From Candidatus Rokuibacteriota bacterium (GTDB lineage Bacteria; Methylomirabilota; Methylomirabilia; Rokubacteriales; CSP1-6): 64,000 nucleotides of DNA. Made by a program: the position numbers and the translations under genes. The notes beneath the pieces are model-generated. The model worked only from the letters and a program-made list of their open reading frames with translations. It was not told the DNA's origin and did not search any database. Of the stretch, positions 4,556 through 60,401 are shown piece after piece. The first letter of the stretch is position 1, and the number at the start of each line of letters is the position of its first letter. The stretch is taken from NCBI GenBank assembly GCA_003220225.1, contig QHRU01000038.1, positions 30,971 to 94,970 on the forward strand, in the 5' to 3' direction.

Positions 4556-5766
4556 TGAGCGGCTTCGCGACCATCGACGAGGCGATCGAGGAGATCCGGC
4601 ACGGCCGCATCCTGGTCGTCGTCGACGACGAGGACCGGGAGAACGAGGGCGACCTCGTCATGGCCGCCGACAAGATCACCCCCGAGGCCGTCAACTTCAT
4701 GGTCACGCACGCGCGCGGGCTCATGTGCGTGCCGATGCTGGGCGAGCGGCTGGACGAGCTCAAGCTCGGCATGATGGTGGCCGAGAACACCGCGCCGATG
4801 GGCACCGCCTTCACGATCAGCGTGGACGCGCGGCGCGGCATCACCACCGGTATCTCCGCCTACGACCGGGCCGTCACCATCCGCGCGCTCGTCGATCCGC
4901 AGATGACCTCGGCCGATCTCGTCACACCCGGACACATGTTCCCGCTGCGCGCGATGGAGGGCGGCGTGCTGCGCCGCGCCGGGCACACGGAGGCGGCGGT
5001 GGACCTCGCGCGGATGGCGGGCTGCTATCCCGCCGGCGTGATCTGCGAGGTGCTCGACGAGACCGGCGGCATGGCCCGCCTGGCCAAGCTGAGCGATCTT
5101 GCGCGGCGGCACGGACTCAAGCTCATCACCATCAAGGACCTCATCGAGTACCGCACGCAGAAGGAGAAGCTGGTGCGGCGGGTCGCGACCTCGCGGCTGC
5201 CGACCGACTACGGCGAGTTCACCGCGATCGCCTACGAGGCGACGGTCTACAGCCGGGTCCATTTCGCCATCGTGATGGGCAACGTGGCCGGCGACGACCC
5301 GGTGCTCGTGCGCATGCACTCCGAGTGCCTCACCGGCGACGTGTTCCACTCGATCCGCTGCGACTGCGGGCCGCAGCTCAACATGGCGATGGCGATGGTC
5401 CAGAAGGAGGGGCGCGGCGTGGTCGTGTACCTCCGGCAGGAGGGCCGCGGCATCGGCCTGCACAACAAGGTGCGCGCCTACGGGCTTCAAGATTTGGGCA
5501 TGGACACGGTGGAGGCCAACGCGGCACTCGGCTTCAAGGCCGACATGCGCGACTACGGCATCGGCGCCCAGATCCTCGTGGATCTCGGGCTGAAGAACCT
5601 GCGCCTGCTGACCAACAATCCGGCCAAGCGGGCCGGCCTCGAGGGCTACGGCCTCACGGTGGTCGAGCGCGTACCGATCGAGGTGCCCGCGAACCCCGAG
5701 AACCGCAAGTACCTCAGCACCAAGCGCGACAAGCTGGGTCACCTCCTGTCCTCGCTGCCGGATTGA
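4552..5766 (+). CDS. ribBA: Bifunctional DHBP synthase / GTP cyclohydrolase II
   Basis: [40 protein letters not shown]. Confidence 0.97.
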
Positions 5767-6035
5767 GTGGGGGCCCCGAGATGGCCCCCACACCCCCAAC
5801 GCTCGGCAGCGCCCCGGCAAAGCCGTGGCGCTCCTCAGTCCCGCGCTTCGTGCGCGCCCGATTGAGTGGGGGCTCCGACATGGCCCCCACACCCCCAACG
5901 CTCGGCAGCGCCCCGGCAAAGCCGTGGCGCTCCTCGGTCCCGCGCTTCGTGCGCGCCCGATTGAGTGGGGGCCCCGACATGGCCCCCACACCCCCACACG
6001 CTCGTCGCGCCCCGGCGCAGCCGTGGCGCTCCTCG
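5761..6035 (+). repeat. Tandem 99-bp palindromic repeat, about 2.8 copies (family A)
   Basis: Units start at 5761, 5860, 5959; each has hairpin GGGGGCC-ccgacat-GGCCCCC, a C-run, and hairpin AGCGCCCCGGC-aaa-GCCGTGGCGCT. Confidence 0.95.
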
Positions 6036-6063
6036 ACGATGCGATTCGTTCACGCCGTCTGAC

Positions 6064-6567
6064 ATGGCCGGCCGCGCGCCGTCACCCCGCCGGCGGACGC
6101 GGTCGCGCCCCGGCCTCAGATTCGCCGTCGTCGCCGCGCGCTTCAACGAGCCGATCACCAAGCGGCTGCTCGACGGCGCGCTGCACGCCCTCGACGCCTC
6201 CGGCGTCGCCGCGCGCGATCTCGAGGTGCACTGGGTGCCCGGCGCCTTCGAGCTGCCGCAGGCGGCGCTGTACCTGGCGCGCACGCGCCGTTTCGCCGCC
6301 ATCGTCTGCGTCGGGTGCGTGATTCGCGGCCAGACGCCGCACTTCGACTTCGTGGCGGGCCAGGCCGCAGCGGGGATCCAGCGCGTCGGCCTCGAGACGG
6401 GCGTGCCGACGACGTTCGGCGTGGTCACCGCGCTCACGGAGGCGCAAGCGTGGGAGCGCGCGGGTGGTGAAGTCGGCAACCGCGGCGCCGAGGCGGCGGA
6501 GGCCGCGCTCGAAATGGTCTCGTTCGTACAGCGGGTGAGGGGCCATGGGAAAACGGCGCAAGGCTAG
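6064..6567 (+). CDS. ribH: 6,7-dimethyl-8-ribityllumazine synthase
   Basis: ARFNEPIT, VPGAFELP, IRGQTPHFD; ATG 6064 chosen because the upstream in-frame GTG lies inside the repeat. Confidence 0.95.
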   Translation: MAGRAPSPRRRTRSRPGLRFAVVAARFNEPITKRLLDGALHALDASGVAARDLEVHWVPGAFELPQAALYLARTRRFAAIVCVGCVIRGQTPHFDFVAGQAAAGIQRVGLETGVPTTFGVVTALTEAQAWERAGGEVGNRGAEAAEAALEMVSFVQRVRGHGKTAQG

Positions 6568-6958
6568 GGAGGTCGCCCTGCAATTCCTCTATCAGCTCGA
6601 CCAGACGGGCGCCGACGATCCCACGCCCTTCGAGGACGACTTCTGGGGCCGTCATCCCGTGGACGAGGTCGCGCGCGCCTTCGCGGCCTCGCTCGTGCGG
6701 GGGACCAAGGCGCAGCAGCCGAAGATCGACGCGATCATCGCCGAGACCGCTGAGCACTGGGATCTCGAACGCATGGCCGTGGTCGACCGTAATATATTGA
6801 GGATGGCCGTGTACGAGCTGCTGTGCGAGCCCACCGTGCCGGGCAAGGTCGCGATCAACGAGGCCATCGAGATCGCCAAGAAGTTCGGCACGGCCGAGTC
6901 GAGCCGCTTCATCAACGGCGTGCTCGACCGTATCCACCGGGAGCTGCGTCCCGCCTGA
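6545..6958 (+). CDS. nusB: Transcription antitermination factor NusB
   Basis: RRKAREVALQFLYQ, VAINEAIEIAKKF, FINGVLD; ribH-nusB synteny. Confidence 0.96.
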   Translation: MGKRRKAREVALQFLYQLDQTGADDPTPFEDDFWGRHPVDEVARAFAASLVRGTKAQQPKIDAIIAETAEHWDLERMAVVDRNILRMAVYELLCEPTVPGKVAINEAIEIAKKFGTAESSRFINGVLDRIHRELRPA

Positions 6959-6971
6959 GCACGCGCCGCCC

Positions 6972-10319: not shown

Positions 10320-10336
10320 CCCCAGGGGGGCCACCA

Positions 10337-24824: not shown

Positions 24825-26128
24825 CCTACGCGACGTACGTGCTCTACACCGCGCTGCTCGCCGCGGGCGTCACCGCGTACGCGCCGCTCGCCGTGGCGCG
24901 GCGCCTCACGCGCGGCGTGCCGCTGAACCTCCGGGCCCGGTTCGGCTACGGCGGCCAGGACGGACGGGGACCGCGCGGCTGGGTGCACGCCGTCTCGGTG
25001 GGCGAGGCGATCGCGGCGGCGCCGCTCGTGGAGGGCCTCCACCAGACGTATCCGTCGCTGCCGCTCGTGGTCACGACGGTCACGCCGACGGGCGCGCGCG
25101 TCGTCACCGAGCGCTTCGCGGGGCTCGCGAGCCATCGCTACTTTCCGCTCGACTTTCCCGGCGCCGTGCGCCGCACGCTGGCGGCCATCGACCCCGCGTT
25201 TTTCATCTGCATGGAGACGGAGCTCTGGCCCAACGCGCTGCGCGCGCTCGCCGCGCGGGGCGTGCCGACGATGATCGCCAACGGCCGGCTCTCCGACCGC
25301 TCCTTCCGGCGCTACCGGCTGGTCCGCTCGGCCCTGCGCGGCGTGCTGGCCGACGTCCGCGTCTTCGCGATGCGCTCGGACGAGGACGCGCGGCGGATCA
25401 TCGCGCTCGGCGCTCCGGCGGAGCGCGTCGTGGTGACCGGCAATCTCAAGAACGACGCGCCGGCGGACCCGGCCGGGGTCGCCGATCTCTGGCGGCGCCT
25501 GCTCGGCCTGTCGCGGGATCAGCGCGTGTGGATCGCGGGCAGCACGCACGGCGGCGAGGAGGAGGCCGCGCTCGCCGCGCACGCGGCGGCGGCGGCGGAG
25601 CACCCCGGGCTCGCGCTGATCCTGGCGCCGCGCCATCCGGAGCGGGTGGACGAGGTGCTGTCGCTCATCGCCGCCCGCGGCCTCAGGGCGGTGCGCCGCA
25701 GCGCGCTGCCCGTTGGGCGCGCCGCCGGCGCCATCATCGTCGTCGACACCGTCGGCGAGCTGGCGCAGATGTACGCCGTCGCCGACGTCGTCTTCGTCGG
25801 CGGCAGCCTCGTGCCGCTCGGCGGCCACAACGTGCTGGAGCCGGCGTTGCGCCGCAAGCCCGTGCTCATGGGTCCGCACACCGACAACTTCCGCGAGGCC
25901 GCCGGGCTCCTGACGGCGAGCGGCGGCGCCCTCGTCGTCCACGACGCCGCGTCGCTCGGGTTCGAGCTGCGCCGGCTGCTCGCCGATCCCGGGCTGGCGG
26001 CGCAGCGCGGCGAGGCCGGCTTCGAGTCGCTCGCGGCCCAGCACGGCGCCGTGCGCCAGACGCTCGAGCTCGTCGCGCGCTTCCTGGCCCCGGAGTCGCT
26101 GGCCCGCTCCGGGGACGCCGGACGGTGA
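24821..26128 (+). CDS. waaA: Kdo transferase
   Basis: WVHAVSVGE, ETELWPN, GNLK, AGSTH, APRHPER, GGHNVLEPA. Confidence 0.96.
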   Translation: MTYATYVLYTALLAAGVTAYAPLAVARRLTRGVPLNLRARFGYGGQDGRGPRGWVHAVSVGEAIAAAPLVEGLHQTYPSLPLVVTTVTPTGARVVTERFAGLASHRYFPLDFPGAVRRTLAAIDPAFFICMETELWPNALRALAARGVPTMIANGRLSDRSFRRYRLVRSALRGVLADVRVFAMRSDEDARRIIALGAPAERVVVTGNLKNDAPADPAGVADLWRRLLGLSRDQRVWIAGSTHGGEEEAALAAHAAAAAEHPGLALILAPRHPERVDEVLSLIAARGLRAVRRSALPVGRAAGAIIVVDTVGELAQMYAVADVVFVGGSLVPLGGHNVLEPALRRKPVLMGPHTDNFREAAGLLTASGGALVVHDAASLGFELRRLLADPGLAAQRGEAGFESLAAQHGAVRQTLELVARFLAPESLARSGDAGR

Positions 26129-26160
26129 GCGCCGTGCGGCCACTCGGATTTCGGGGGGCC

Positions 26161-26232
26161 GCCGTGCGAGCCCGCTTCAGGAGCCGCAGCCGCAGGCGAG
26201 GCGACGCTGTGACGAGCGAGGCGAGCCTGTGA
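26161..26232 (+). repeat. Family B junction element (copy 1)
   Basis: GTGCGAGCC..AGGAGCCGCAGCCGCAGGCGAGGCGACGCTGTGA..GCGAGGCGAGCCTGTGA, near-identical to 38198-38274. Confidence 0.85.
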
Positions 26233-27326: not shown

Positions 27327-28348
27327 TCTCGGCGCTCGCGGTGCGCCTGCCCAACTGGCTGGGCGACACGGTGATGGCCGAGCCGGCCGTGCGCGCGCTG
27401 CGCCGCGCGCATCCGCAGGCGCAGGTGCTGCTGGCGGGGCCGTGGGCGACGGTGCTCGGCGGCCAGGGGCTCGCGGACACGCTCGTGACCTATCCGCGCG
27501 CGTGGTCCGGGCGGCTCGCTGCCGCCGACGTCGTGCGGCGGCTCGCGCCCGACACCGCCGTGCTGCTGCCCAACTCGGTCGAGTCGGCGCTGGCCGCCTG
27601 GTACTGGGGTGCGGGCCGTCGCATCGGCTTCGACGCCGGCGTGCGCGGCAAGGTGCTCACCGACGTCGTCGCGCTGCCCGAGCCGCGGCGCCACCAGATC
27701 GACGAGTACCTGATGCTCGCCGAGCGGTGTGGCGCGAGCGCCGACGACGCGGAGCCGACGCTCACGCCGCCGCCGGCCGACGGCGCCGCGCGGGCCGAAG
27801 CGCGCGCGCTGCTCGCCGAGGCCGGCGCGCACGGCGGACGCCGCACGGTCGGCGTGCACCTGGGCGCCGCCTACGGGCCGGCGAAGACGTGGCCCGCCGA
27901 GCGCGTCGCCGAGCTCTGCCGGCTGCTCGACACCGTCGGCGCGCGCGCTGTCCTGCTCGGCACGGCCGCCGAGGCGCCCGCGGCGGCGGCCCTCGCCGCC
28001 GAGGCGCCGGCGGCGACGCTGGCCGGGCGCGATCGTCCCGCGCTGCTGCCGTCGCTCCTCGCGGAGCTGGACGCGCTCGTGTCTGGCGACACGGGCGTGG
28101 CGCATCTCGCCACCGCGCTCGGCACGCCCGTGGTCGCGCTGTTCGGTCCCACCGATCCCGCGCTGTCGGCGCCGCGCGGCCGCGCGGTGGCGCTGACCCA
28201 CCCGGTGCCGTGCGCGCCGTGCTTCTATCGCGTCTGCCCGATCGAGCATCCCTGCCTGCGCGGGCTCGAGGCCAAGCGCGTGCGCGACGCCGTGCTGGCG
28301 CTGCTGGAGAGCGCGCCACCGCCGCGTCCGGCGCGGAGGCAGCAATGA
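27323..28348 (+). CDS. waaF: LPS heptosyltransferase II (GT9)
   Basis: RLPNWLGDTVM, GAAYGPAKTW, DTG..H, FGPT, CAPC..RVCP..HPC. Confidence 0.9.
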   Translation: MISALAVRLPNWLGDTVMAEPAVRALRRAHPQAQVLLAGPWATVLGGQGLADTLVTYPRAWSGRLAAADVVRRLAPDTAVLLPNSVESALAAWYWGAGRRIGFDAGVRGKVLTDVVALPEPRRHQIDEYLMLAERCGASADDAEPTLTPPPADGAARAEARALLAEAGAHGGRRTVGVHLGAAYGPAKTWPAERVAELCRLLDTVGARAVLLGTAAEAPAAAALAAEAPAATLAGRDRPALLPSLLAELDALVSGDTGVAHLATALGTPVVALFGPTDPALSAPRGRAVALTHPVPCAPCFYRVCPIEHPCLRGLEAKRVRDAVLALLESAPPPRPARRQQ

Positions 28349-28415
28349 GCGCGCGCGTTGACTTGCCGACCGTCGAGCGGCGGAGCCCTGCGAAGCCGCG
28401 CCGACGGCAAATCCA

Positions 28416-29555
28416 ATGACCGCGGGAGCGCTGACCGTCCTGCATCTCGCGGCCAATCGCTGGTGGACTGGCAGCGCCGACCCGACCATCCAGCTCGCGA
28501 GCGCGCAGCAGGCGCGCGGCCACCGCGTGCTGCTGGCGGTGCCGCCGGGCGACCGATTCGAGGCCAAGGCGCGCGAGGCCGGGCTGACGCTGGTCGAGGG
28601 CTTCCACCTGCGCGCGCGGCTGGCGCCGTTGCAGATCGCCCGCGACGCCGTCCGGCTGCGCCGTGTCGCGCGCGAGCAGGCGGTGGACGTGCTGCACGCG
28701 CATCATTCCCACGACCACTGGCTCGCGCTGCTCGCGCGGCCCCGCAGCGGCGGGCGGCGGCCACCGGTGGCCCGCACGTTCCACGCGCTGCGCGCGGTGA
28801 AGCGCGACGCGGTGTCGCGCCGGCTCTACCGTCGCACGGACGCCGCGCTCGCCGTTTCGCGCCAGATCGAGGCGCGCTGCCGCGAGGCGGGCGTTCCTCC
28901 CGAGCGCGTGTACTGGACGCCGGGGATGGCGGACCTGCCGCGCTTCGCCGCCGAGGCCGACGGCCGCGCGGTCCGCGAGGAGTTCGCGCTGGGCGACGCG
29001 CCGGTGGTCGTGTCCGTCGCGCGGCTCGCGGCCAACCGCGGCCACGAGTTGCTGCTCGCGGGCTTTCGCGGACTGCTCGCCGATCTCCCCGCCGCGCGCC
29101 TGTTGCTGGTGGGCAAGGGGGAGACGCGCGAGCGCCTCGAGCGGCTCGTCGCCGGGCAGGGGCTCGCCCGACACGTCACGTTCGCCGGCTACCGCGACCG
29201 CGACCTGCCGTCGGTGCTGGCGGCGGCCGACTGCTTCGCCCTGATGGCGCCGGGCTCCGACGACTCGTGCCGCGCGGCGCTCGAGGCGATGGCGGCCGCA
29301 CGCCCCGTCGTCGCGCGCGCGGTCGGCGCGCTGCCGGAGACGGTCGCTCACGGCGAGACCGGACTCCTGGTGGAGGGCGACCGGCCGGAGGCGGTCGCGT
29401 GGGCGCTCCGCTCCGTGCTGACCGATCGCGCGCGCGCCCGCGCGATGGGGGCGGCGGGGCGGCGGCGCGCCGAGAAGGAATTCAGCCCGGCGCGCGCCGT
29501 CGAGACCGTCGAGCGTGCGTACCGCGCGATGCTCGGCGCCCGGCCGGCCCGGTGA
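28416..29555 (+). CDS. Glycosyltransferase family 4 (LPS core)
   Basis: GT-B fold features, ALEAMAAARPVVA, ETGLLV. Confidence 0.9.
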   Translation: MTAGALTVLHLAANRWWTGSADPTIQLASAQQARGHRVLLAVPPGDRFEAKAREAGLTLVEGFHLRARLAPLQIARDAVRLRRVAREQAVDVLHAHHSHDHWLALLARPRSGGRRPPVARTFHALRAVKRDAVSRRLYRRTDAALAVSRQIEARCREAGVPPERVYWTPGMADLPRFAAEADGRAVREEFALGDAPVVVSVARLAANRGHELLLAGFRGLLADLPAARLLLVGKGETRERLERLVAGQGLARHVTFAGYRDRDLPSVLAAADCFALMAPGSDDSCRAALEAMAAARPVVARAVGALPETVAHGETGLLVEGDRPEAVAWALRSVLTDRARARAMGAAGRRRAEKEFSPARAVETVERAYRAMLGARPAR

Positions 29556-29565
29556 GAGCTCGCCG

Positions 29566-30681
29566 GTGAGGATCCTGCACCTGATGTCGTGCCGCGGCTG
29601 GTCGTCGGACGCCTACTGGGCGGCGCGCGCGTGTCGCGAGCTCGAGCGCCGCGGGCACGCGGTGACGCTCGGGTGCAAGCGCGGCACCGACGATCGCGTC
29701 ATCGACCGCGCGCGCGAGGAGGGGGTGACGCGGATCGAGACGTTCGAGCTGGCGGGCGGCCTGCGGCCGGCGCTGGACGGCGCCGATCTGCGACGGCTCG
29801 CGCGCGCGCTGCGCGACGCCGACGTCGTGCACGTCCACCGCGGCAAGGAGCACTGGCTCGCCGCGGCCGCCGGGTACCTCACGGGCGGGCGGCGGCCGCC
29901 GGTCGTGCGCACGCGCCACATCGCGCAGGCGGTGCGGCCGCACGCCGCCAATCGCTGGCTCTACCGCCGGGCCACGGCCCTCGTCGTCACCGTGACCGAG
30001 GCGATCCGCCGCCAGTACCTCGCATCCGGCCTGCTGCCTCCCGAGCGCGTCGTCGCGCTGCAAGGCGGCGCCGACGTCGAGACGTATCGCCCGGGGCCGG
30101 CGGATCCCAGCGTCCGGCGCCGGCTCGGCGGCGACGGCGAGCCGCTCGTCGGCCTCGTCTCCGGGCTGCGCGTGATGAAGGGCCACCAGGTTGTCGTCGA
30201 CGCCCTCGCGCGTCTGGCGTCGCGGGGCCGGACCCCCCGCGTGGTCTTCGTCGGCCGCGGCACTCACGAGCCCGCCGTGCTCGCGGCGATCCACCGCGCC
30301 GGACTCGAGCGCCGCGTGACGGTCGCGGGCTTCGCCCCCGACCTCCCGGCGGTGATGGCCGCCCTCGACGTCGCGCTCTACGTGCCGCTGGAGTCCGACG
30401 GGATGTCGCGCGTGCTGTTCGAGTACCTCGCGGCCGGGCGGCCGCTCGTCGCCGCGCGCACCGGGGTCGTGCCCGAGGTGCTGGGCGACGGCGTGCACGC
30501 GCTCCTCGTGCCGGCCGGCGACGCGGGCGCGCTGGCCGAGGCCCTCGAGCGCCTGCTCGACAACGCCGCGCTCCGTGCGCGACTCGGAGCGGCCGCGCGC
30601 GCGCTGGCGCTGGAGCGCTACTCCGGTGCGCGGCTGGCCGAGGCGCTCGAAACCCTCTACGCGCGCCTCCTCGTGGCATGA
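29566..30681 (+). CDS. Glycosyltransferase family 4 (LPS core)
   Basis: RILHL start, MKGHQ, FEYLAAGRPLVA. Confidence 0.9.
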   Translation: MRILHLMSCRGWSSDAYWAARACRELERRGHAVTLGCKRGTDDRVIDRAREEGVTRIETFELAGGLRPALDGADLRRLARALRDADVVHVHRGKEHWLAAAAGYLTGGRRPPVVRTRHIAQAVRPHAANRWLYRRATALVVTVTEAIRRQYLASGLLPPERVVALQGGADVETYRPGPADPSVRRRLGGDGEPLVGLVSGLRVMKGHQVVVDALARLASRGRTPRVVFVGRGTHEPAVLAAIHRAGLERRVTVAGFAPDLPAVMAALDVALYVPLESDGMSRVLFEYLAAGRPLVAARTGVVPEVLGDGVHALLVPAGDAGALAEALERLLDNAALRARLGAAARALALERYSGARLAEALETLYARLLVA

Positions 30682-31817
30682 AGGTCTCCGTCCTCGCCTT
30701 CGACCTCTCGGACAACGCCACCGGACGCGCCGACCTGCTCGCACGCTTGCTGGCGCCGCGCTACGAGGTGGAGGTGGTGGGACCGCGCTTCGGCGACGCC
30801 GTCTGGCGCCCCGCTCGCGACGGCGCGGTCCGTTACCGCGCACTCCCGGGCGCGCGCTGGCCGCGCTTCGGCGCGATGCTGCCCGCGCTCGCCCGGCTCG
30901 CCGACGGCGACGTGTTGTTCGCCTCCAAGCCGCGGCCGACCAGCTTCGGCGTCGCGCTGCTCGCGCGACGGCAGCGACGCCGGCCGCTGATCCTCGACAT
31001 CGACGACTGGGAGCTCGGCTTCTTCTATCGCGCCGGCTTCTGGGGGCGGGTGGGGCGGCTGCTGAACCTCGGGAACCCGAACGGGCTGCCGTGGACGTGG
31101 CTCGCCGAGCGGTTCGTGGCCCGCGCCGACGCGCTGACGGTGGCCTCGCGCTTCCTCGCCGATCGCTTCGGCGGGATCCTCGTGCCCCACGTCCGCGATA
31201 CCGAGGCGTGGGCGCCGGAGCGCTTCGACCGTGCCGCGGCGCGCGCCCGGCTCGGCGTCGGCGACGCGCGCGTCGTGATGTTCCTCGGCACGCCGCGCGG
31301 CCACAAGGGCGTCGAGGATTTGGTCGAGGCGACGGCCGGACTCGACGCCGCGCGGCTCGTCCTCGTCGGCGCCAATGCCGACAGCGCCGCCGCGCGGCGC
31401 TGGGCCGCGCGCGGGCACGTGAAGGTCGTCGGCGAGATCCCGTTCGACGACGTGCCGCGCTACCTGGTGGCTGCCGACGTGGTCGCCGTGCCGCAGCGCG
31501 CGACCACGGACACGCTCGGGCAGGTGCCCGCGAAGCTCTTCGACGCGATGGCGCTGGGACGGCCGATCGTGTCCACGGCCGTGTCCATGATCCCCGAGAT
31601 CCTCGAGGGCTGCGGCGTGCTCGTTCGTCCGGGCGACACGACGGCGCTGCGCGTGGCCCTCGGGCGCCTGCTCGACGATCCGGCGAGCGCCGCCGAGCTG
31701 GGACGCCGCGCCCGTCAGCGCTGCGCCGAGCGCTACAGCTTCGCCACCGCCCGCGCCGTCCTGTTCCCGCTCATCGACGATCTCGCCTCCAAGTTCCGTC
31801 TGAAGCGAGGCACGTGA
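30678..31817 (+). CDS. Glycosyltransferase family 4
   Basis: HKGVEDL, PAKLFDAMALGRPIVST. Confidence 0.9.
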   Translation: MKVSVLAFDLSDNATGRADLLARLLAPRYEVEVVGPRFGDAVWRPARDGAVRYRALPGARWPRFGAMLPALARLADGDVLFASKPRPTSFGVALLARRQRRRPLILDIDDWELGFFYRAGFWGRVGRLLNLGNPNGLPWTWLAERFVARADALTVASRFLADRFGGILVPHVRDTEAWAPERFDRAAARARLGVGDARVVMFLGTPRGHKGVEDLVEATAGLDAARLVLVGANADSAAARRWAARGHVKVVGEIPFDDVPRYLVAADVVAVPQRATTDTLGQVPAKLFDAMALGRPIVSTAVSMIPEILEGCGVLVRPGDTTALRVALGRLLDDPASAAELGRRARQRCAERYSFATARAVLFPLIDDLASKFRLKRGT

Positions 31818-31875
31818 CGGCAGTGCGGCGGATCGTGCGCGCGCGCTTCGCTGGCGAGTGGGCAAGCGCGTGGCC

Positions 31876-32031: not shown

Positions 32032-32061
32032 AACCCACACGCTCGGCGCCGCCACCGTGTC

Positions 32062-33156
32062 ATGAGAATTCTCATCATCGCTCGCCCGTATGCGTTTCAT
32101 GGGGGCGTGGAGAGTGCGACGGCCGGGCTGATGCGCGCGCTCGTCGCGTACGGCCACGACGTGCATCGCGCCGGTCCTGGCCGCCAGTCGCCGCAGATCG
32201 GTGTCACCGAGCACCCGCTGCCTCTCCCGCCGCTGCCCTCGGCAGCGCGTGGGCTGGCGCTGGCGCTCGCGGCCGTGGTCGTCGCCCGCCGCCGGGGGTG
32301 GGACGTGGTGCAGAGCCACGAGCGCACGCTCGTTCAGGATGTCTATCGCGCGGGCGAGGGGTGCCACCGCGCGTATCTCGAGGCGATCGGCGCCTCGGCG
32401 GGACGGCGGCTGCATCACGCGGTGACGCTCGCCCTCGAGCGGCGCGTGTTCGCGCGCACGCCCCAGATCGTCGCGATCGCGCGACGCGGCGCGGAGGAGA
32501 TCGCGCGGCACTACGCGGTGCCGGCACCGCGGCTCTCCGTCGTCTACAACGGCGTGGACCTGGAGCGCTTCCATCCACGGCTGCGCGGTCCGCATCGCGA
32601 GGGCGCGCGCGACGAGGCCGGCATCCCGGCCGGCGCGTTCACCGCGCTGTTCGCCGGCAGCGGCTTCGCGCGCAAGGGTCTCGCGACGGCGATCCGCGCG
32701 CTCGCGCAGCTCACGGACTCGCGCGCGCGCCTGCTCGTGGTCGGGCGGGACGACACGGCTCCCTATCGGCGGCTCGCGGGCGAGCTCGGCGTGGCGGGAC
32801 GCGTCGCGTGGCTCGGCGCGCGGCCGGACATCGAGCGCTGGTACGCCGCCGCCGACGCGCTGGCGCTGCCCACGCGCTACGAGCCGTTCGGCAACGTCCA
32901 CCTCGAGGCGCTCGCGAGCGGCCTGCCCGTGGTGACGAGCGTGGTGGCGGGCGGTGCCGAGATCGTCGACGAGCGCTGCGGCGCGATCGTGGCCCCTGAT
33001 GACGCCGCCGGGCTCGCGGCCGCGCTCGACAAGCTGCGTGGCCGGAACGCGGCGGAGGTTCGCGACGCGGCGCGCGCGGCCGCCGAGCCGTTCACTTTCG
33101 CGCGGCAGGTGCGCGCGCTGGAAGAGGTCTATCGTCGTTTGGGGCGCAACCGCTGA
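32062..33156 (+). CDS. Glycosyltransferase family 4, WaaG/RfaG-like
   Basis: GGVE, QSHER, YRAGEGCH, NGVD, GSGFARKG, YEPFGNVHLEALASGLPV. Confidence 0.9.
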   Translation: MRILIIARPYAFHGGVESATAGLMRALVAYGHDVHRAGPGRQSPQIGVTEHPLPLPPLPSAARGLALALAAVVVARRRGWDVVQSHERTLVQDVYRAGEGCHRAYLEAIGASAGRRLHHAVTLALERRVFARTPQIVAIARRGAEEIARHYAVPAPRLSVVYNGVDLERFHPRLRGPHREGARDEAGIPAGAFTALFAGSGFARKGLATAIRALAQLTDSRARLLVVGRDDTAPYRRLAGELGVAGRVAWLGARPDIERWYAAADALALPTRYEPFGNVHLEALASGLPVVTSVVAGGAEIVDERCGAIVAPDDAAGLAAALDKLRGRNAAEVRDAARAAAEPFTFARQVRALEEVYRRLGRNR

Positions 33157-33806: not shown

Positions 33807-34840
33807 CCGGGGGCGGCGTGAACGCACGGCTGCGCGGCCTCGTCGACGGCTTCGCGGGCAAGACGCTCGTCGTGGTCGGCGACCTGATCAGCGACGAGTA
33901 CCTCTACGGCAAGCCCGCGCGCATCTCGCGCGAGGCGCCGGTGCTGATCCTGCGCTTCACCGAGCGTGAGGTGAGCCTCGGCGGCGCCGCCAACGCCGCC
34001 CACAACGTCCACGATCTCGGCGCGCGCGTGGTGCCGGTGGGCGTCGTCGGCAAGGACGTCGCCGGCGACGAGCTGCTCGCCCTCTTCCGCGGCGCGGGCA
34101 TTCCGACCGACGGCATCCTCCCCGAGACCGGCCGCGTCACGCCGGTGAAGACGCGCATCATGGCCGGCGGCTACCAGGCCACACGCCAGCAGGTCGTGCG
34201 GCTCGATCGCGAGCCCTCACACGAGCCGCAGCCGATCACCGAGGACTTGCTGCTGACTCGCCTGACCTCCCTGGCCGCCCGCGCCGACGCCATCCTCGTC
34301 TCCGACTATGGCTACGGCACCGTCACCCCGCGCGTCTTCGACCGGATCCGCGCCATCGCGCGTCGCACCGGCGCCGTCCTGACCGTCGACAGCCGGTACA
34401 GCCTCCTGCGCTTCACCGGGGTGACGGCGGCGACACCGAACGAGGCCGAGCTGGCGCAGCTGGCCGGCGCCCTCACCGACGGCGAGCGCGAGGTCGAGAA
34501 GGCAGGCCGCCAGCTCCTCGAGCGGCTCGACGCGCGCTTCCTCCTCGTCACGCGCGGCAGCCGCGGGATGGCCCTGCTCGAGCGCGACGGCGCGACCACG
34601 TTCATCCCCGTCCACGGCACCGACGAGATCGCCGACGTCACCGGCGCCGGCGACACCGTCATCAGCGCCTTCACGCTGGCGCTGGCCTGCGGCGCGCCGG
34701 CGCTGGAGGCCGCGACGCTCGCCAACGTGGCCGGTGGCATCGTGGTCATGAAGCGCGGCACGGCCACCGTCACCGCCACGGAGCTGCGCCAGTCGCTCGG
34801 TGGCAGTGCGAGTGGCGGTGCGAGTGGCAGTGCGAGCTGA
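33803..34840 (+). CDS. hldA: Heptose 7-phosphate kinase (HldA/RfaE domain I)
   Basis: RISREAPV, GGAANAA, SDYG, TPNE, DVTGAGDTV. Confidence 0.9.
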   Translation: MTGGGVNARLRGLVDGFAGKTLVVVGDLISDEYLYGKPARISREAPVLILRFTEREVSLGGAANAAHNVHDLGARVVPVGVVGKDVAGDELLALFRGAGIPTDGILPETGRVTPVKTRIMAGGYQATRQQVVRLDREPSHEPQPITEDLLLTRLTSLAARADAILVSDYGYGTVTPRVFDRIRAIARRTGAVLTVDSRYSLLRFTGVTAATPNEAELAQLAGALTDGEREVEKAGRQLLERLDARFLLVTRGSRGMALLERDGATTFIPVHGTDEIADVTGAGDTVISAFTLALACGAPALEAATLANVAGGIVVMKRGTATVTATELRQSLGGSASGGASGSAS

Positions 34841-34968
34841 GCAGCGCCGCGCTGCGAGCCGAGCGTGGCGGTGCGAGGTGAGCAGCGCCCCGCTGCGAGC
34901 CGAGCGGTGAAATGATCGTGGCGGTGCGAGGTGAGCAGCGCCCGGCTGCGAGCCGAGCGGTGAAATGA
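34801..34968 (+). repeat. Compound tandem repeat (3x12-bp TGGCRGTGCGAG plus about 53-bp units); family B-related
   Basis: TGGCGGTGCGAGGTGAGCAGCGCCC..GCTGCGAGCCGAGCGGTGAAATGA at 34866 and 34919, partial copy at 34825. Confidence 0.9.
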
Positions 34969-37205: not shown

Positions 37206-38194
37206 TGGCGGCGGCCAAAGAGCGCGTGCTGTCGGGGATGCGACCGAGCGGACGGCTGCACCTGGGGAACTACCTGGGGGCCCTGGCCAACTGGGTCAAG
37301 CTCCAGGACTCCTACGACTGCTTCTACTTCTCCGCCGACTGGCACCTGCTGACCGACCGCCTGGAGACGTCCCAGGTCCCCCAGCACACCATCGAGATGG
37401 CCGCGGACTGGCTGGGCGCCGGGCTGGATCCCGCGCGCTCGACGCTGTTCATCCAGTCGCTGATTCCCGAGCACGCGGAGCTGCACCTGCTGTTCTCGAT
37501 GGTGACGCCGGTGTCCTGGCTCGAGCGCGTGCCGACCTATCGCGAGCGGATCGAGCAGCAGGAGATCACCTCGCCGTCATACGGCCTGCTCGGCTATCCG
37601 CTGCTGCAGGCGGCGGACATCCTCATGTACAAGCCGAGGTGGGTCCCCGTGGGCATCGACCAGGCGCCGCACGTCGAGCTCACGCGCGAGGTCGCGCGCC
37701 GGTTCAACAACGCGTTCGGCGAGGTCTTCCCCGAGCCCGACGTCAAGCTGACGGAGATTCCCAAGGTCCCGGGCACCGACGGCCGCAAGATGTCGAAGTC
37801 CTACGGCAACGACATCGAGCTGGCCGACCCGCCGGAGACGATCCGCGCCAAGGTGCGCCCGATGATGACGGACCCCGCGCGCAAGCGCCGCACGGATCCG
37901 GGGAACCCGGACGTGTGCCCGGTGTTCGACCTGCACAAGATCTTCACGCCGGAGGCCGACCTGCAGTTCGTCGCCAACGGCTGCCGCACCGCCGGCATCG
38001 GGTGTCTCGACTGCAAGGACGTGCTGCTCAAGCACATGGTGCCGCCGCTCGAGAAGATCCGCGAGCGGCGCCAGCAGTTCGTGGAGAAACCGGATAGGAT
38101 CGTGGAGATCCTGCACGAGGGAAGTCGCCGCGCGCGGGCGGTGGCGGGCCGAACGATGGAGGAGGTCAGGGCGGCGGTGCATCTGACTCCATGA
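37205..38194 (+). CDS. trpS: Tryptophan--tRNA ligase
   Basis: SGMRPSGRLHLGNY, YPLLQAADIL, VPVGIDQ, KMSKS. Confidence 0.97.
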   Translation: MAAAKERVLSGMRPSGRLHLGNYLGALANWVKLQDSYDCFYFSADWHLLTDRLETSQVPQHTIEMAADWLGAGLDPARSTLFIQSLIPEHAELHLLFSMVTPVSWLERVPTYRERIEQQEITSPSYGLLGYPLLQAADILMYKPRWVPVGIDQAPHVELTREVARRFNNAFGEVFPEPDVKLTEIPKVPGTDGRKMSKSYGNDIELADPPETIRAKVRPMMTDPARKRRTDPGNPDVCPVFDLHKIFTPEADLQFVANGCRTAGIGCLDCKDVLLKHMVPPLEKIRERRQQFVEKPDRIVEILHEGSRRARAVAGRTMEEVRAAVHLTP

Positions 38195-38274
38195 TGGCAG
38201 TGCGAGCCGCAGCCCGCATCAGGAGCCGCAGCCGTAGGCGAGGCGACGCTGTGAGAAGCGAGGCGAGTCTGTGA
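38195..38274 (+). repeat. Family B junction element (copy 2)
   Basis: TGGCAGTGCGAGCC..AGGAGCCGCAGCCGTAGGCGAGGCGACGCTGTGA..GCGAGGCGAGTCTGTGA. Confidence 0.85.
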
Positions 38275-48722: not shown

Positions 48723-48998
48723 ATGACGAAAGCCGACCTCATCGACGAAGTCTCGAAGCTCTCGAATCTCACGAAGAAAGAGACCGAGACGATCGTCAAC
48801 ACGATCTTCGACAACATCACCGACGCGCTGGCGAAGGGCGACAAGGTGGAGTTGCGGGGGTTCGGCAGCTTCAGGATCCGCCACCGGAACTCGCGCAAGG
48901 GCCGAAATCCGAAGACCGGCAGCGCCGTGGACGTTCCCCAGAAGCGCGTTCCCTTCTTCAAGGTCGGCAAGCGCCTGCGAGAGCTCGTCAACGCGTGA
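48723..48998 (+). CDS. ihfB: Integration host factor beta / HU family
   Basis: MTKADLI, VELRGFGSF, GRNPKTG, PFFKVGK; rpsA-sppA-ihfB synteny. Confidence 0.9.
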   Translation: MTKADLIDEVSKLSNLTKKETETIVNTIFDNITDALAKGDKVELRGFGSFRIRHRNSRKGRNPKTGSAVDVPQKRVPFFKVGKRLRELVNA

Positions 48999-49014
48999 GG
49001 GCCCGCCTGGCGTT

Positions 49015-49494
49015 TTGAAGCGCCTGTGGGCTCCCTGGCGGATGGCCTGGATTCGGGGCGCGCACCCCGCCGCCGGCTGCGTCTTCTGCAACGCTCGTGA
49101 CGGCGCCGACGACCGCGCCTCGCTCGTGCTGCTCCGCGGCCCCCACGCCTTCCTGGTCCTCAACGCCTATCCCTACACGCCCGGGCACCTCATGGCGGTG
49201 ACGAATCGCCACGTGGGCGCCCTCGGCGAGGCGCGGCCCGAGGAGCTGACCGACGCGCTGACGCTCGTGCAGCGCGCGGTGTCGGCGCTGAGCCTCGAGT
49301 ACCGCGCCGAGGGCTTCAACGTCGGCCTGAACCAGGGCCGCGTGGCGGGGGCGGGGATCGAGGACCATCTGCACGTGCACGTCGTGCCGCGCTGGGGCGG
49401 CGATCACAACTTCGTGACGGTCGTGGGCGACACGCGCGTCCTGCCCGAAGACCTGGCGACCACGTGGGAGCGCCTGCGGAGCCGCGTGGCGTGA
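49015..49494 (+). CDS. HIT family hydrolase (Ap4A phosphorylase-like)
   Basis: LWAPWR, CVFC, NAYPY..GHLM, AGAG..HLHVHVVPRW. Confidence 0.92.
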   Translation: MKRLWAPWRMAWIRGAHPAAGCVFCNARDGADDRASLVLLRGPHAFLVLNAYPYTPGHLMAVTNRHVGALGEARPEELTDALTLVQRAVSALSLEYRAEGFNVGLNQGRVAGAGIEDHLHVHVVPRWGGDHNFVTVVGDTRVLPEDLATTWERLRSRVA

Positions 49495-49511: not shown

Positions 49512-53747
<4,236 letters not shown>

Positions 53748-53752
<5 letters not shown>

Positions 53753-53871
53753 TGCGAGCCGAGGCCGTCCGACGGCCGAGGCGAGCCTGTGATGGAGCTG
53801 GGCGTGCGAGCCGAGGCCGTTCGACGGCCGAGGCGAGCCTGTGATGGAGCTGGTAGTGCGAGCCGAGGCCG
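53748..53871 (+). repeat. Tandem 52-bp repeat, about 2.4 copies (family B-related)
   Basis: GTGCGAGCCGAGG at 53752, 53804, 53856; internal hairpin GGCCGT-nnn-ACGGCC; units end GAGGCGAGCCTGTGA. Confidence 0.92.
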
Positions 53872-53876
53872 AAGGG

Positions 53877-53882
53877 TAGACT
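53877..53882 (+). promoter_or_regulatory. Putative -10 (TAGACT) 7 nt before miaA ATG; leaderless candidate
   Basis: TANNNT-N7-ATG. Confidence 0.45.
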
Positions 53883-53889
53883 GCCACTG

Positions 53890-54834
53890 ATGTCCGACAA
53901 GCCTCCGCTCCTCGTCATCGCGGGTCCCACCGGTGTCGGCAAGACGGCCGCCGCGGTCGCGCTCGCGGCGCGGCTGCCGATCGAGGTCGTGTCGGCGGAC
54001 TCGCGCCAGGTCTACCGCGGCATGGATGTCGCGACCGGCAAGCCGACCGCCGATGAGCTGCGCGCCGTGCGCCATCACCTGGTGGACGTCGTGGATCCAG
54101 ACGATCGCTACGACGCCGCGCGCTTCGCCCGCGACGCGCGGGCCGCGATCGACGCGATCCGCCAGCGCGGCCGGCTGCCGGCCGTCGTGGGCGGCACCGG
54201 GCTCTACATCCGCGCGCTCCTGCGCGGGCTCGATCCCGCGACGCCGGCGGACCCGGCCTTCCGCGCCGAGCTCGCAGAGGTCGCGGCTCGCGAGGGACGG
54301 GCGGCGCTGCATGGGCGGCTCGCCGCCCAGGAGCCCGCGCTGGCCCGGCGGCTGCACCCGAACGACCACGTGAGGATCATTCGCGCGCTCGAGCTGGTGC
54401 GGGCGGGCAGCCCCGCGGGCGAGGCTCAGACGCGCTGGCGTGAGGGCGACGCCGAGTGGGACGTCGTCTACGTCGGGCTCACGCTGGATCGCGCGAGGCT
54501 CGACGACCGTCTGCGTCGGCGCGCGCAGCGCATGGTCGCCGCCGGCCTCGAGGACGAGGTCCGTGGTCTCCTCGCGCGCGGCTACGTGCCGACGCTGCCG
54601 GCGATGCAGGGTCTCGGCTACCGCGAGTTCGTCCGCGTGGTCCAGGAGCGACTCGACGTGGAGGAGGCGCGGCGGCTCATGCAGCGCGACACGCTGCGCT
54701 ACGCGCGGCGGCAGTGGACCTGGTTTGCCCGCGAGCCGGAGTTGCAGTGGATCGACGTCGAGGCCGCGGAGGCGGCCGGCGGCGTGGCGGCGGCGATCGA
54801 GGCGAGACTCAAGCAGGAGGGCCGGATCGGGTGA
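53890..54834 (+). CDS. miaA: tRNA dimethylallyltransferase
   Basis: GPTGVGKT, DSRQVYRGMD, GGTGLY, RALE, LGYRE, YARRQ.TWF. Confidence 0.97.
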   Translation: MSDKPPLLVIAGPTGVGKTAAAVALAARLPIEVVSADSRQVYRGMDVATGKPTADELRAVRHHLVDVVDPDDRYDAARFARDARAAIDAIRQRGRLPAVVGGTGLYIRALLRGLDPATPADPAFRAELAEVAAREGRAALHGRLAAQEPALARRLHPNDHVRIIRALELVRAGSPAGEAQTRWREGDAEWDVVYVGLTLDRARLDDRLRRRAQRMVAAGLEDEVRGLLARGYVPTLPAMQGLGYREFVRVVQERLDVEEARRLMQRDTLRYARRQWTWFAREPELQWIDVEAAEAAGGVAAAIEARLKQEGRIG

Positions 54835-56150: not shown

Positions 56151-56158
56151 AGCCTTCG

Positions 56159-56705
<547 letters not shown>

Positions 56706-56728
<23 letters not shown>

Positions 56729-58025: not shown

Positions 58026-59353
58026 TCGCGATCGTCGGCCGGCCGAACGTCGGCAAGTCCACGCTGTTCAATCGCCTCGTCGGACGCCGGCAGGCGCTCG
58101 TCCGTGACACGCCGGGCGTGACGCGCGATCGCCTCTACGGCCAGGTCCAGTTCGAGCGCTGGCAGGCGACGGTGATCGACACGGGCGGCTTCGATCCCGG
58201 CTCGACGGAGCCGCTCGTCGAGGGCGTGCGCCGCCAGGTGCTGGCAGCCGTGGAGGACGCCGACCTCATCGCCTTCGTCGTCGACGCGCGCGAGGGCGCG
58301 ACGGCGCTGGACCAGGAGATCGCGCGGCTGCTGCGAAAGACCAACAAGCCCGTGGTCCTCGTCGCCAGCAAGGTGGACGACCGCGGCCAGGAGCCGGCGC
58401 TGGCGGACCTCTATCGGCTCGGCTTCGGCGAGCCGCTCGGCGTCTCGGGCGAGCACGGCCGCGGCGTCGCCGAGATGCTCGAGGTCCTGCGCGAGCGCGC
58501 GCCGTCGCCGACGGCGCCTCCCGGCGGCAAGCGTCCGGTCGCCATCGCGGTGATCGGCCGCCCCAACGTCGGCAAGTCGTCGCTCGTCAACGCGATGCTC
58601 GGCACCGAGCGCGTGCTCGTGCACGAGGCGCCGGGCACGACGCGCGACGCCGTGGACACGCCGTTCGTCTACGAAGGCCGACCCTACGTGCTGGTCGACA
58701 CCGCCGGCATCCGGCGCAAGGGCAAGGTGACGGAGGCGCTCGAAAAGCTCGCCGTGGTGATGGCGCTCAAGAGCCTCGAGCGCTCGCAGGTTGCGCTGCT
58801 CGTCATGGACGCCTCCGAGGGCCTGACCGCGCAGGACGCGCACATCGCGGGCTACGCGCACGAGGCCGGGCGCGCCATCGTCCTCGTCGTCAACAAGTGG
58901 GACCTCGTGCCCCGGGGCATGGTGAGAAAGGCCGAGGTCGTCGAGCAGGTGCGCGACCGGCTGCCGTTCCTCGACTACGCGCCGATGTGCTTCACCTCGG
59001 CGACGCGCGGCGAGGGACTGCGCGAGCTGTTCGAGACGATCGACCGCGTCGCGGCCGAGGCTCAGCGCCGCGTGCCGGCCGAGGAGGTGACCGCCGTTCT
59101 GCGCCAGGCGCTCGACCGTCGCCCGCTGTCGGTGGCCGGCCTGCCCCTGACCATCCAGTCGGCGAACCAGGTGAGCGTCGGCCCGCCGACCATCGCCGTG
59201 CGCGTGAACCGGCCGGACGAGATCCATTTCTCCTACGAGCGCTATCTCGCCAAGTCGCTGCGCCACGCGTTCGGCTGGGAGGGCTCGCCGCTGCGGCTGT
59301 CGTTCCGCCGCGCCGGGCGCGCCCGCCCGAGCGCGCCGAAGGCACGGCGATGA
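58010..59353 (+). CDS. der: Ribosome biogenesis GTPase Der (EngA)
   Basis: Two GRPNVGKS P-loops, PGVTRD / PGTTRD, DTGG / DTAG, NKWD. Confidence 0.96.
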
Positions 59354-59371
59354 GACATCCTGTGTCAAGCC

Positions 59372-59536
59372 CGAGGCGCGCCACGGCTGCGCCGGGGCGC
59401 GTCCGAGCGCTGGGGGGTGTGGGGGGCCATGTCGGGGCCCCCCACGCTCACGAGCGAGTGATCGAGGCGCGTCACGGGTTTCCCGGGATGCGCCGAGCGT
59501 TGGGGGGTGTGGGGGGCCATGTCGGGGCCCCCCACG
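59372..59536 (-). repeat. Family A palindromic repeat, 2 copies in reverse orientation (90-bp period)
   Basis: TGGGGGGTGTGGGGGGCCATGTCGGGGCCCCCCACG at 59411 and 59501 is the reverse complement of the 5761-6035 unit core. Confidence 0.93.
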
Positions 59537-59543
59537 TAAGCAG

Positions 59544-60401
59544 ATGAGCCCCTTCCGCCGCACCGGCTCGGGACTCTGGCTCGCGATCCTCGGCGTCCTG
59601 CTGTTCGCGGCCGGCGCCGGCATCCTGCTGGCCAGCCCGCGGCATCGTGCGCTCTACTACGGTGAGCCGCCCGCCGTGGTGGCGCCGGCCGCCGGTCCGT
59701 CGCAGGTGGTGGCGGCCGTCGGCAGCGGCAAGGTGCCGTATCCCGACGCGTTGGGGCGCTTGCGCGTGCGTATCGCGGATCGCGAGCCCACGCGGCTGCC
59801 GGCCGAGGGCGCGCCGCCCGGCTGGACGCTCAAGGAGTTCGCCGGCCACGCATCGATCGAGCTCGTGCGCGCCGACGGCCGCCTGGCCGCGCGCCTGCGC
59901 AGCGAGCGCGCCTCGTTCGCGATGCACCGCGACGTCGTCGTCGAGCTGCGCGAGTTCCCGTACCTGTCGTGGACGTGGAAGGTGACGAGGCTCCCCGCGG
60001 GCGGCGACGTGCGCGACGCCGCGCGCGACGATCAGGCCGCGCAGGTCTACGTGATCTTCCCGCGCTGGCCCTCGCCGCGGACGAAGAGCGACGTGGTGGG
60101 CTACATCTGGGACTCGCGCGCGCCCGTCGGCACCCGGCTCAAGAGCCCCCGCGCCGACAACGTCCGCATCGTGGTCGTCGAGTCGGGGGGGGCGCGGCTC
60201 AACGAGTGGCGCGCCTACGAGCGCAACGTGGCCGCCGACTACGCGGCGCTCTTCGGCCGCCAGCCGCCCCGGGTCGGCAAGCTGGCCGTCATGGTCGACT
60301 CCAACGACACCCGGGGGGAGGCGGAGGCCCTGTTCGGCGATCTGGTCTTCGCCCGGACGCGCCAGAGAAGCGTGGAAATCCCAACCCCCGTGCTAAGATA
60401 A
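59544..60401 (+). CDS. DUF3047-like exported protein
   Basis: N-terminal TM, LSWTWKV, DDQAAQVYVIF, YIW, ERNVAADY..LFG, DSNDT. Confidence 0.8.
   Translation: MSPFRRTGSGLWLAILGVLLFAAGAGILLASPRHRALYYGEPPAVVAPAAGPSQVVAAVGSGKVPYPDALGRLRVRIADREPTRLPAEGAPPGWTLKEFAGHASIELVRADGRLAARLRSERASFAMHRDVVVELREFPYLSWTWKVTRLPAGGDVRDAARDDQAAQVYVIFPRWPSPRTKSDVVGYIWDSRAPVGTRLKSPRADNVRIVVVESGGARLNEWRAYERNVAADYAALFGRQPPRVGKLAVMVDSNDTRGEAEALFGDLVFARTRQRSVEIPTPVLR
60391..60399 (+). promoter_or_regulatory. Putative extended -10 (TGcTAAGAT) 7 nt before SPOR gene ATG; leaderless candidate
   Basis: TGnTANNNT-N7-ATG. Confidence 0.5.

Follow-up and report, generated by a model that had tools for sequence, protein, structure and literature searches.

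Dispersed repeats at overlapping stop and start codons of Rokubacteria operons may be tolerated through relay mini-ORFs

The 64-kb stretch of DNA analysed here (the window: positions 30971-94970 of contig C121 in genome G000) belongs to a soil metagenome-assembled genome of Candidatus Rokubacteria, and its subject is a set of short open reading frames (mini-ORFs) that bridge the extra DNA lying between neighbouring genes of one co-directional cluster. The assembly comprises 6.03 Mb in 167 contigs, is 97% complete and has 70% guanine plus cytosine (G+C), ranging from 66 to 78% across the window. Genes were called with a home-made program that combines a dicodon model, Shine-Dalgarno (SD) bins and start-codon weights, is trained iteratively and is blind to NTGA, the tetranucleotide in which a TGA stop and an NTG start overlap. 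It called 5516 genes in G000 (87% coding density), 60 of which lie in the window, every one on the + strand, with 4-nt overlaps at 12 of the window junctions. A run of 60 genes on the + strand alone across 64 kb is an unusually long co-directional block. Pfam matches agree with the gene names assigned in an earlier, sequence-only reading of the window, namely RibBA, lumazine synthase, Kdo transferase, LpxK, GT9, four GT1/GT4 genes, a PfkB kinase, a cytidylyltransferase, a TrpS-type synthetase, ScpA, EngA/Der and DUF3047.

The sequence-only reading had singled out eight intervals in which a stop-free mini-ORF leads from the stop of one gene to the start of the next, and all eight are as it described them: each has NTGA at both ends, an offset of 2 modulo 3 (3n+2) and no internal stop, and the downstream starts, called blind, coincide with those read by eye (6064, 26229, 28416, 29566, 32062, 34965, 38271 and 59544). 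For counting, a stop preceded by A or G (ATGA or GTGA, together RTGA) was taken as a start-capable overlap, and an exact relay was defined as a case in which the RTG overlapping the stop opens a frame that meets its first stop in a TGA which overlaps the start called for the next gene. Spacers of at least 5 nt occur at 33 window junctions; the upstream stop is ATGA or GTGA at eight of these, and six of the eight are exact relays. The proposal that the extra DNA consists of repeat elements was borne out at five of the six main junctions, where it belongs to one of four dispersed repeat families, A to D (Table 1).

Table 1. Relay junctions and related features of the window (GT, glycosyltransferase gene; offsets in nt)
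Junction or feature	Positions	Strand	Mini-ORF or open frame	Offset	Element
ribBA>ribH	5757..6063	+	open frame from TTGA 5763 to stop 6060-6062		three tandem 99-nt family A units, antisense
waaA>lpxK	26125..26232	+	GTGA to GTGA	104	family B element; GTGAGCG at both ends
waaF>GT	28345..28419	+	ATGA to ATGA	71	family C element
GT>GT	29552..29569	+	GTGA to GTGA, five codons	14	not a dispersed repeat; short-spacer class
GT>waaG-like	31814..32065	+	GTGA to ATGA	248	family D element
PfkB kinase>hldC-like	34837..34968	+	four-step chain of NTGA-overlapping mini-ORFs		tandem 53-nt units
trpS>scpA	38191..38274	+	ATGA to GTGA	80	family B element
extra short relay candidate	48995..49018	+	from GTGA stop to TTGA 49015, start of a 159-codon TTG ORF		
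counter-example to relay rule	53750..53890	+			family B tandem 53-nt units after a TAG stop; absent from the sequence-only reading
der>DUF3047	59350..59547	+	ATGA to ATGA	194	family A, subfamily A1, with internal partial duplication

The element between der and the DUF3047 gene folds into strong hairpins (z = -4.1) and has no SD before the DUF3047 start. The two family B copies at trpS>scpA and waaA>lpxK are 90% identical over 69 nt, the family C element at waaF>GT is one of three copies in G000 with a 71-nt offset, and the family D element carries inverted-repeat arms of 39 nt (31876-31914 and 31993-32031). Ahead of the hldC-like gene the chain steps from 34837 through 34878, 34907 and 34912 to the ATGA start at 34965; its first step is on a CTG, which was not taken as a start, and the chain was left out of the chain count. 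The frame at ribBA>ribH, which runs from a TTGA to a CTGA, stops 1 nt before the ATG at 6064 and lies in an array with a folding z of -3.4, is a weak case for a relay, with its TTG start, antisense units and a unit length of 0 modulo 3.

Orthologous junctions were searched for in 40 genomes of the same order, and the relatives expected by the sequence-only reading, in which a single NTGA overlap stands where G000 has an element, were found at four junctions. No claim made here draws on the genome G020, which is flagged as unpublished. Between der and the DUF3047 gene, the two closest species whose junction is clean (G003 and G006) show a simple ATGA overlap, G005 shows CTGA, and most of 20 Rokubacteria der loci place the downstream start on an RTG overlapping the der stop. 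The trpS>scpA junction is an ATGA overlap in G003 and G006. At waaA>lpxK, G008 has a GTGA overlap, G003 a 14-nt CTGA..ATGA spacer and G005 a different, 62-nt family B relay, so that in two species one and the same junction is occupied by family B relays differing in length, 104 and 62 nt. The fourth empty site is an ATGA overlap at GT>waaG in G005. The family D core of that junction (window 31876-32031) is present in G006 and G003 in reverse orientation relative to G000 and does not form a relay there, a difference due either to inversion between the long inverted arms or to independent insertion. The family C element at waaF>GT occupies the same site in G005 and is absent from G003, and the short non-repeat GT>GT spacer keeps its register across genomes (14 nt in G000, 14 nt in G005 and 11 nt in G003). 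Filled and empty sites differ by a duplicated ATGAG at der>DUF3047 and a duplicated GTGAGCG at waaA>lpxK, as would be expected if the direct repeats on the NTGA were target-site duplications, which is how they had been interpreted. At ribBA>ribH the open frame and its stop 1 nt before the ATG stand as reported, and insertion at an NTGA overlap does not, the empty site in G003, G008 and G006 being TGA-C-ATG and the units antisense behind a weak TTG.

Genome-wide, G000 has 4062 co-directional neighbour pairs, 812 of which overlap by 4 nt and 2238 of which are separated by gaps of 5-400 nt. In 468 of the latter a TGA stop is combined with an NTGA start, and tabulating their offsets modulo 3, as the sequence-only reading had proposed, gave an uneven 139/113/216 (chi-square p = 1e-8); gap lengths of 1, 4, 7 ... 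25 nt show a clear three-base periodicity. The unevenness resides in pairs with ATGA or GTGA stops (59/35/118 compared with 70/68/83 for CTGA) and is thus specific to start-capable stops. Exact relays follow the same division, amounting to 35/147 for ATGA, 67/371 for GTGA, 10/104 for TTGA and 55/682 for CTGA, or 102/518 for RTGA combined against the same 55/682, and the contrast between RTGA and controls is present in every gap class (p = 1.5e-6, 1.9e-4 and 7.5e-3). The caller does not see which base stands ahead of the upstream stop, and the contrast therefore does not arise from the calling itself. Where TG follows a stop, a start shares one nucleotide with that stop and opens the same frame as a -4 start; this class was therefore used as a second test of start capability rather than as a separate frame and gave 37/116 relays versus 299/2122 (p = 3e-6). 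In 59% of the RTGA pairs that are in register the downstream start has A at +4, versus 29-31% of those out of register. Where a TGA stop is paired with a downstream start other than NTGA, the downstream genes are distributed 352/223/261 over the frames, favouring the frame of the NTG that overlaps the stop; either the caller skips true overlap starts or starts have shifted downstream in frame.

Taken together with the eye-picked junctions, these counts bear on whether the relays could be a product of chance and selection by eye, with stops being rare and mostly TGA so that any frame ends on some NTGA. The sequence-only reading had itself raised this caveat, the cases that begin on TTG or CTG are weak (ribBA>ribH and the first hldC step), and G000, with its high G+C, has a background of 8-14% for relays that are exact or chained, so that any one short relay may be due to chance. 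Chance is nevertheless highly improbable as an account of the whole, as start calls made without regard to NTGA agree with those read by eye, the internal controls differ two- to threefold (p = 1e-6 to 7e-3 in every gap class), six of eight RTGA spacer junctions in the window are relays, and the pattern is replicated in relatives and in a second genome.

The signal in G000 has two components: repeats that bring a relay of their own, and short unique spacers in which the register is preferred. There are 45 exact relays from RTGA stops with gaps above 30 nt, approximately 30 of which are built from dispersed repeats, and when pairs with families A to D are removed no excess is left in gaps above 30 nt (13/140 vs 31/457 and 4/117 vs 15/375), while the excess in gaps of 5-30 nt remains (57/207 compared with 89/702 for controls). 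The second genome, G034, belongs to another family of the order and was sampled as 1.2 Mb of its contig C8 in 60 separate 20-kb stretches, using the same caller and tests. Exact relays there number 31/136 for RTGA, 23/221 for CTGA and 10/207 for other stops, with both gap classes significant (p = 0.002 and 0.001). None of the 19 long relays of G034 recurs within the sampled sequence or has a match in G000, and the three of them that were checked genome-wide are all single-copy; the single-copy spacers of G034 span 34-127 nt. In the same region (C8, 1-1,200,000) overlaps of 4 nt make up 84 of 786 co-directional pairs, far below the proportion in G000.

The mini-ORFs lack the composition of genes. 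Their G+C content at codon positions 1/2/3 is 0.67/0.73/0.72 for short and 0.71/0.64/0.76 for long non-family cases in G000 and 0.76/0.75/0.73 in G034, compared with 0.72/0.49/0.91 for real genes. On this ground an origin by frameshift or from relic coding sequence was rejected. That origin would make the mini-ORFs remnants of what was once the N-terminus of the downstream gene or the upstream gene's C-terminus, severed by a frameshift that was real or introduced in assembly, and a frameshift near a -4 overlap would be expected to give such a geometry; moreover, G034 is in 10 contigs and may be an indel-prone long-read assembly (the assembly type is our guess). In addition to their composition, the long cases in G000 are dispersed repeats with clean empty sites in relatives, and CTGA stops, which remnants would favour, are not enriched, making this explanation very improbable. 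The earlier description of the mini-ORFs as junk peptides that are nonetheless translated thus holds for the junk, given the absence of a codon-position signature, and their translation is a presumption, as set out below. An SD before the downstream start was found in 9/45 long relays versus 110/266 non-relay RTGA spacers (p = 0.007), a scarcity that fits dependence of these starts on hand-over from the mini-ORF.

Profiles of the repeat families were built from the repeats of long relays and searched against G000 with nhmmer. Family A gave 278 hits at 221 loci, of which 53 lie in sense, 47 in antisense and 1 in mixed orientation between co-directional genes, with the others at 89 convergent, 3 divergent, 24 genic and 4 contig-edge positions. 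Family B gave 36 hits at 28 loci (21 sense and 2 antisense between co-directional genes), family C 32 hits at 27 loci (15 sense and 5 antisense) and family D 72 hits at 32 loci (17 convergent and 14 co-directional). Units are 44-143 nt long and occur also as tandem arrays, with family D and composite copies reaching 268 nt. The imbalance between convergent and divergent family A loci, set against 636 and 651 such pairs in the genome, indicates avoidance of promoters (p = 3e-22). Orientation matters for the relay: at co-directional family A loci exact relays were found in 17/53 sense versus 3/47 antisense copies (p = 0.002), and families B and C pooled are in sense at 36 loci versus antisense at 7 (p = 9e-6). 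Chains that join the upstream stop to the downstream start were counted at 20/51 sense and 3/44 antisense loci of family A, 9/21 of family B and 6/15 of family C. At family loci with an RTGA stop and an NTGA start the offsets are 2/5/29 modulo 3 (29/36 in register; p = 8e-9), the mod-1 class including double relays, so the over-representation of 3n+2 that had been proposed from the window holds across the families; copies within one family are, however, non-independent events. Relay units of family B measure 44, 50, 53, 62, 74, 80 and 104 nt, and many copies of this family open with a TAG stop whose G doubles as the first base of a GTG start. Folding of families B and C revealed no more structure than shuffled sequence (z = +0.3, +0.8 and -0.6), which argues that melting of hairpins is not a general part of the mechanism.

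The clearest relay architecture is that of subfamily A1, defined by a 23-nt head motif and present in G000 as 19 copies at 17 loci, all in sense. The tetranucleotide preceding the head is ATGA in 17 copies and GTGA in 2, and at 13/17 loci the leading TGA terminates a called gene. Each of the 17 loci has between one and three mini-ORFs in succession, leading to an NTGA with which either a called gene (15 loci) or an uncalled long ORF (2 loci; 149 and 248 codons) begins, with mini-ORF offsets of 104, 143, 101, 194, 137 and 98 nt and tandem copies acting as serial relays. The 149-codon ORF, which begins at the 3' ATGA of an A1 copy on the + strand of contig C30 (approximately 4262-4830), is probably a missed gene. 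No SD precedes the next start in any of the 19 copies. The A1 fold consists of two long G+C hairpins (z = -4.1), the second of which ends approximately 10 nt before the downstream start, and a 14-bp G+C stem sits just upstream of that start. Sixteen A1-like loci were retrieved from six other genomes, of the same genus and a second one, with the head in 14 and not in 2. RTGA precedes all 14 heads, its TGA closes a long upstream frame in 12, and in 10 of the 14 a mini-ORF of 101 or 104 nt ends on an NTGA followed by an open ORF. Nine of these ten ends are start-capable and one is CTGA, and the ORFs that follow are open to the edge of the fetched locus, over 44 codons in one and at least 130 codons in nine. 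The encoded A1 peptide is nearly identical among the 17 loci of G000, as it might be if the mini-ORFs encoded functional small proteins, an explanation that we consider extremely improbable, given that peptide identity mirrors the nucleotide identity of the copies and that the mini-ORFs as a whole have no coding composition, come from unrelated families and vary in length from 5 to 83 codons.

Our data suggest that these are intercistronic repeats placed at stop/start overlaps which are probably tolerated through relay mini-ORFs that keep the flanking genes coupled. The unrelated short repeat families (A with A1, B, C and D) would insert exactly at ATGA or GTGA overlaps within operons, duplicating the overlap. 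A tolerated copy would be one that lies in the orientation of the genes, begins on the RTGA of the upstream stop, is free of stops in the frame opened by the RTG and closes on a TGA that overlaps the next gene's start, and tandem copies would yield chains of mini-ORFs. The SD and start codon from which the downstream gene was translated prior to insertion would now serve the mini-ORF or, alternatively, ribosomes finishing the upstream gene would reinitiate on it; they would then traverse the element, melting its hairpins where it has any, finish at its TGA and initiate again at the start that overlaps it. The insertion would in this way leave translational coupling in place, the peptide itself being junk. 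What the analysis shows is the anatomy of the junctions, their statistics, the empty sites in relatives, a bias in orientation and the absence of an SD downstream. Translation of the mini-ORFs, reinitiation, and selection as the cause are presumed; we infer the first two because termination-reinitiation at overlapping stop and start codons is an established process according to a review (PMC12548453).

Several observations weigh against this explanation. All gene starts depend on a caller that is unbenchmarked, and in addition to the high background mentioned above, the 150 real chains among the 2238 spacer pairs include roughly half that would be expected by chance. Non-repeat spacers above 30 nt in G000 lack a relay excess, and many copies of families A, B and C have no ORF from stop to start. 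In the window itself the chain of a family B array (Table 1) is broken by a TAG (53877-53879) that lies 10 nt ahead of the ATG at 53890. The majority of family A loci do not form relays, including the 89 convergent and 47 antisense loci and 36 of the 53 sense loci, which are not exact; overall, family A behaves like a 3'-end element of the repetitive extragenic palindromic (REP) type, and the relay picture fits subfamilies only. Even in A1, an SD precedes the mini-ORF start in just 5/19 copies, and the open frame and length of such near-identical copies may reflect one master copy and not repeated selection. The statement of the sequence-only reading that insertions persist only when coupling is preserved was accordingly too strong, being contradicted by these family A loci (17/53 sense copies exact) and by non-relay copies of family B such as that at 53750-53890, while its view of insertion at overlaps with preservation of register was upheld. 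Contigs from two RNA and two DNA runs break at the der>DUF3047 repeat, and no RNA contig among them spans der, the element and the DUF3047 gene; two metatranscriptome runs contain small shares of the words of the der region.

Much of this would be expected if REP-like elements simply preferred stop codons or ATGA junctions as targets: the NTGA at both ends would be no more than a target-site duplication, the open frame would follow from a G+C content of 70-73%, the mini-ORFs would be untranslated and without a role, and the downstream gene would initiate independently. The mainly 3'-end distribution of family A and its strong hairpins favour such an account, the duplicated ATGAG and GTGAGCG would suffice to explain NTGA at both ends, and approximately 70% of spacers are stop-free in any single frame. 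Duplication alone, however, predicts no preference for 3n+2, yet offsets at family loci are 2/5/29, and the relays depend on orientation (17/53 vs 3/47). Families B and C are unstructured and lie nearly all in sense between co-directional genes, the A1 downstream starts have no SD and stand behind a 14-bp G+C stem, and the same register is found in short non-repeat spacers and in the single-copy spacers of G034. We therefore regard REP-like targeting without hand-over as unlikely, and relay through mini-ORFs as the preferred explanation. A Y1/RAYT transposase (RAYT, REP-associated tyrosine transposase; PF01797) was considered as mobiliser and dropped, as PF01797 has no match in the 97% complete G000, the control search being positive in 6 of 14 reference genomes.

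As the register is favoured also in short non-repeat spacers, the preference points to selection on the register itself and not on the elements alone. We put forward, tentatively and with less confidence than the explanation above, a more general reading in which serial termination-reinitiation would be a selected rule of operon layout in Rokubacteria: DNA after an RTGA stop, or after a stop followed by TG, would be kept only with an in-register, stop-free mini-ORF, and unrelated mobile families would have independently evolved relay ORFs, becoming translationally transparent passengers of operons. The signal backing it comes from the non-repeat spacers of 5-30 nt in G000 and the single-copy spacers of G034.

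The closest known system is that of the interspersed repetitive units of mycobacteria (MIRUs; Supply et al., 1997, as cited in PMC12548453, PMC3184786 and PMC4213456), and the suggestion that relays of this kind had no description as a system did not stand, since MIRUs share the architecture. They are reported to insert at start codons and to have an internal ORF coupled at -4 (PMC12548453). A 2011 review gives 40-50 copies of units of 40-100 bp that are transcribed polycistronically, and it describes tetranucleotide direct repeats, sites both filled and empty, and ORF ends that overlap the neighbouring genes; units of 77 and 53 bp, both 3n+2, are given in a 2014 paper. The Rokubacteria elements appear to work like MIRUs and are not classified here as MIRUs, the likeness being one of architecture. 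Both are repeats of 40-100 bp that lie scattered, frequently in tandem, within the operons of a high-GC bacterium; both go in at start codons, show tetranucleotide direct repeats together with filled and empty sites, have an internal ORF whose ends overlap the flanking stop and start at -4 in units of 3n+2, and have been given the same suggested role, insertion being tolerated since coupling is kept. In G000, short dispersed tandem repeats are found in families A to D; sense orientation between co-directional genes in B, C and A1 and not in family A overall; the overlapping internal ORF in A1 at 17/17 loci downstream and 13/17 upstream; and direct repeats with filled and empty sites at der>DUF3047 and waaA>lpxK, with empty sites also at trpS>scpA and GT>waaG. 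The differences are the phylum, with sequences that are presumably unrelated, the sharing of one architecture by at least four unrelated families with elements reaching 143-248 nt, the hundreds of copies of a family A that is mostly a REP-like 3'-end element, and a register signal that extends to non-repeat spacers and to another family of the order.

Family A resembles REPs and bacterial interspersed mosaic elements (BIMEs), the RAYT-associated palindromes, in its G+C hairpins, its 278 hits at 221 loci and its presence at convergent and operon sites with nearly none that are divergent; palindromes at 3' ends in both orientations and high copy number are found in this family only. It differs in that no Y1 transposase (PF01797) was found in G000, and families B and C differ in being unstructured and orientation-specific. 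To our knowledge REPs have not been described as carrying stop-to-start ORFs. Rickettsia palindromic elements are another example of selfish repeats tolerated by keeping the reading frame; they insert in frame within genes and join the protein, unlike the Rokubacteria elements, which lie between genes and would preserve hand-over rather than protein. A further parallel is offered by reinitiation at upstream ORFs and by engineered bicistronic designs, in which, according to PMC12548453, a short upstream ORF whose stop overlaps the next start delivers the ribosome and overrides structure at that start. In Rokubacteria the short ORF would itself be coupled to the upstream gene, making a serial relay, is carried by mobile repeats and occurs in chains of up to three or four.

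Outside the main junctions, the mini-ORF at 48995-49018 is a possible additional short relay, with the caller placing the start of the gene that follows at ATG 49042 and not at TTGA 49015. An Rfam scan of the window at gathering score gave a single match, a tRNA at 62281-62354, and no known RNA family at the relay elements; the tRNA-Pro (GGG) at 62281-62357 occupies a 432-nt spacer close to the window's end. At least 89% of the words sampled from window positions 57800-60400 are present in each of 18 soil metagenome runs (15 studies), indicating that near-identical strains occur in many soil data sets, and the best of these runs may be the source sample.

Within the library searched, the literature revealed no such elements described beyond mycobacteria, none in Rokubacteria, and nothing on bacterial miniature inverted-repeat transposable elements with translational coupling. 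New here are the phylum, the sharing of one solution by several unrelated families, the presence in the REP-like family A of one subfamily able to relay, the chaining of up to three or four mini-ORFs, and a genome-wide register preference even where no repeat can be recognised. On the practical side, gene callers will misplace starts or miss coupling at such junctions, and the elements are natural designs for bicistronic relays in high-GC hosts. MIRUs have so far stood nearly alone as ORF-coupled repeats that insert at start codons, and their function remained a suggestion. That an uncultured phylum of soil bacteria has the same solution, in no fewer than three or four unrelated repeat families and with genome-wide statistics by stop type, supports this architecture as a convergent route for selfish DNA to live in operons, supports a relay of termination-reinitiation through junk ORFs, and supports a constraint on spacer length modulo three in tightly coupled operons. 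If the more general reading of operon layout were true, the class would be much broader than MIRUs.

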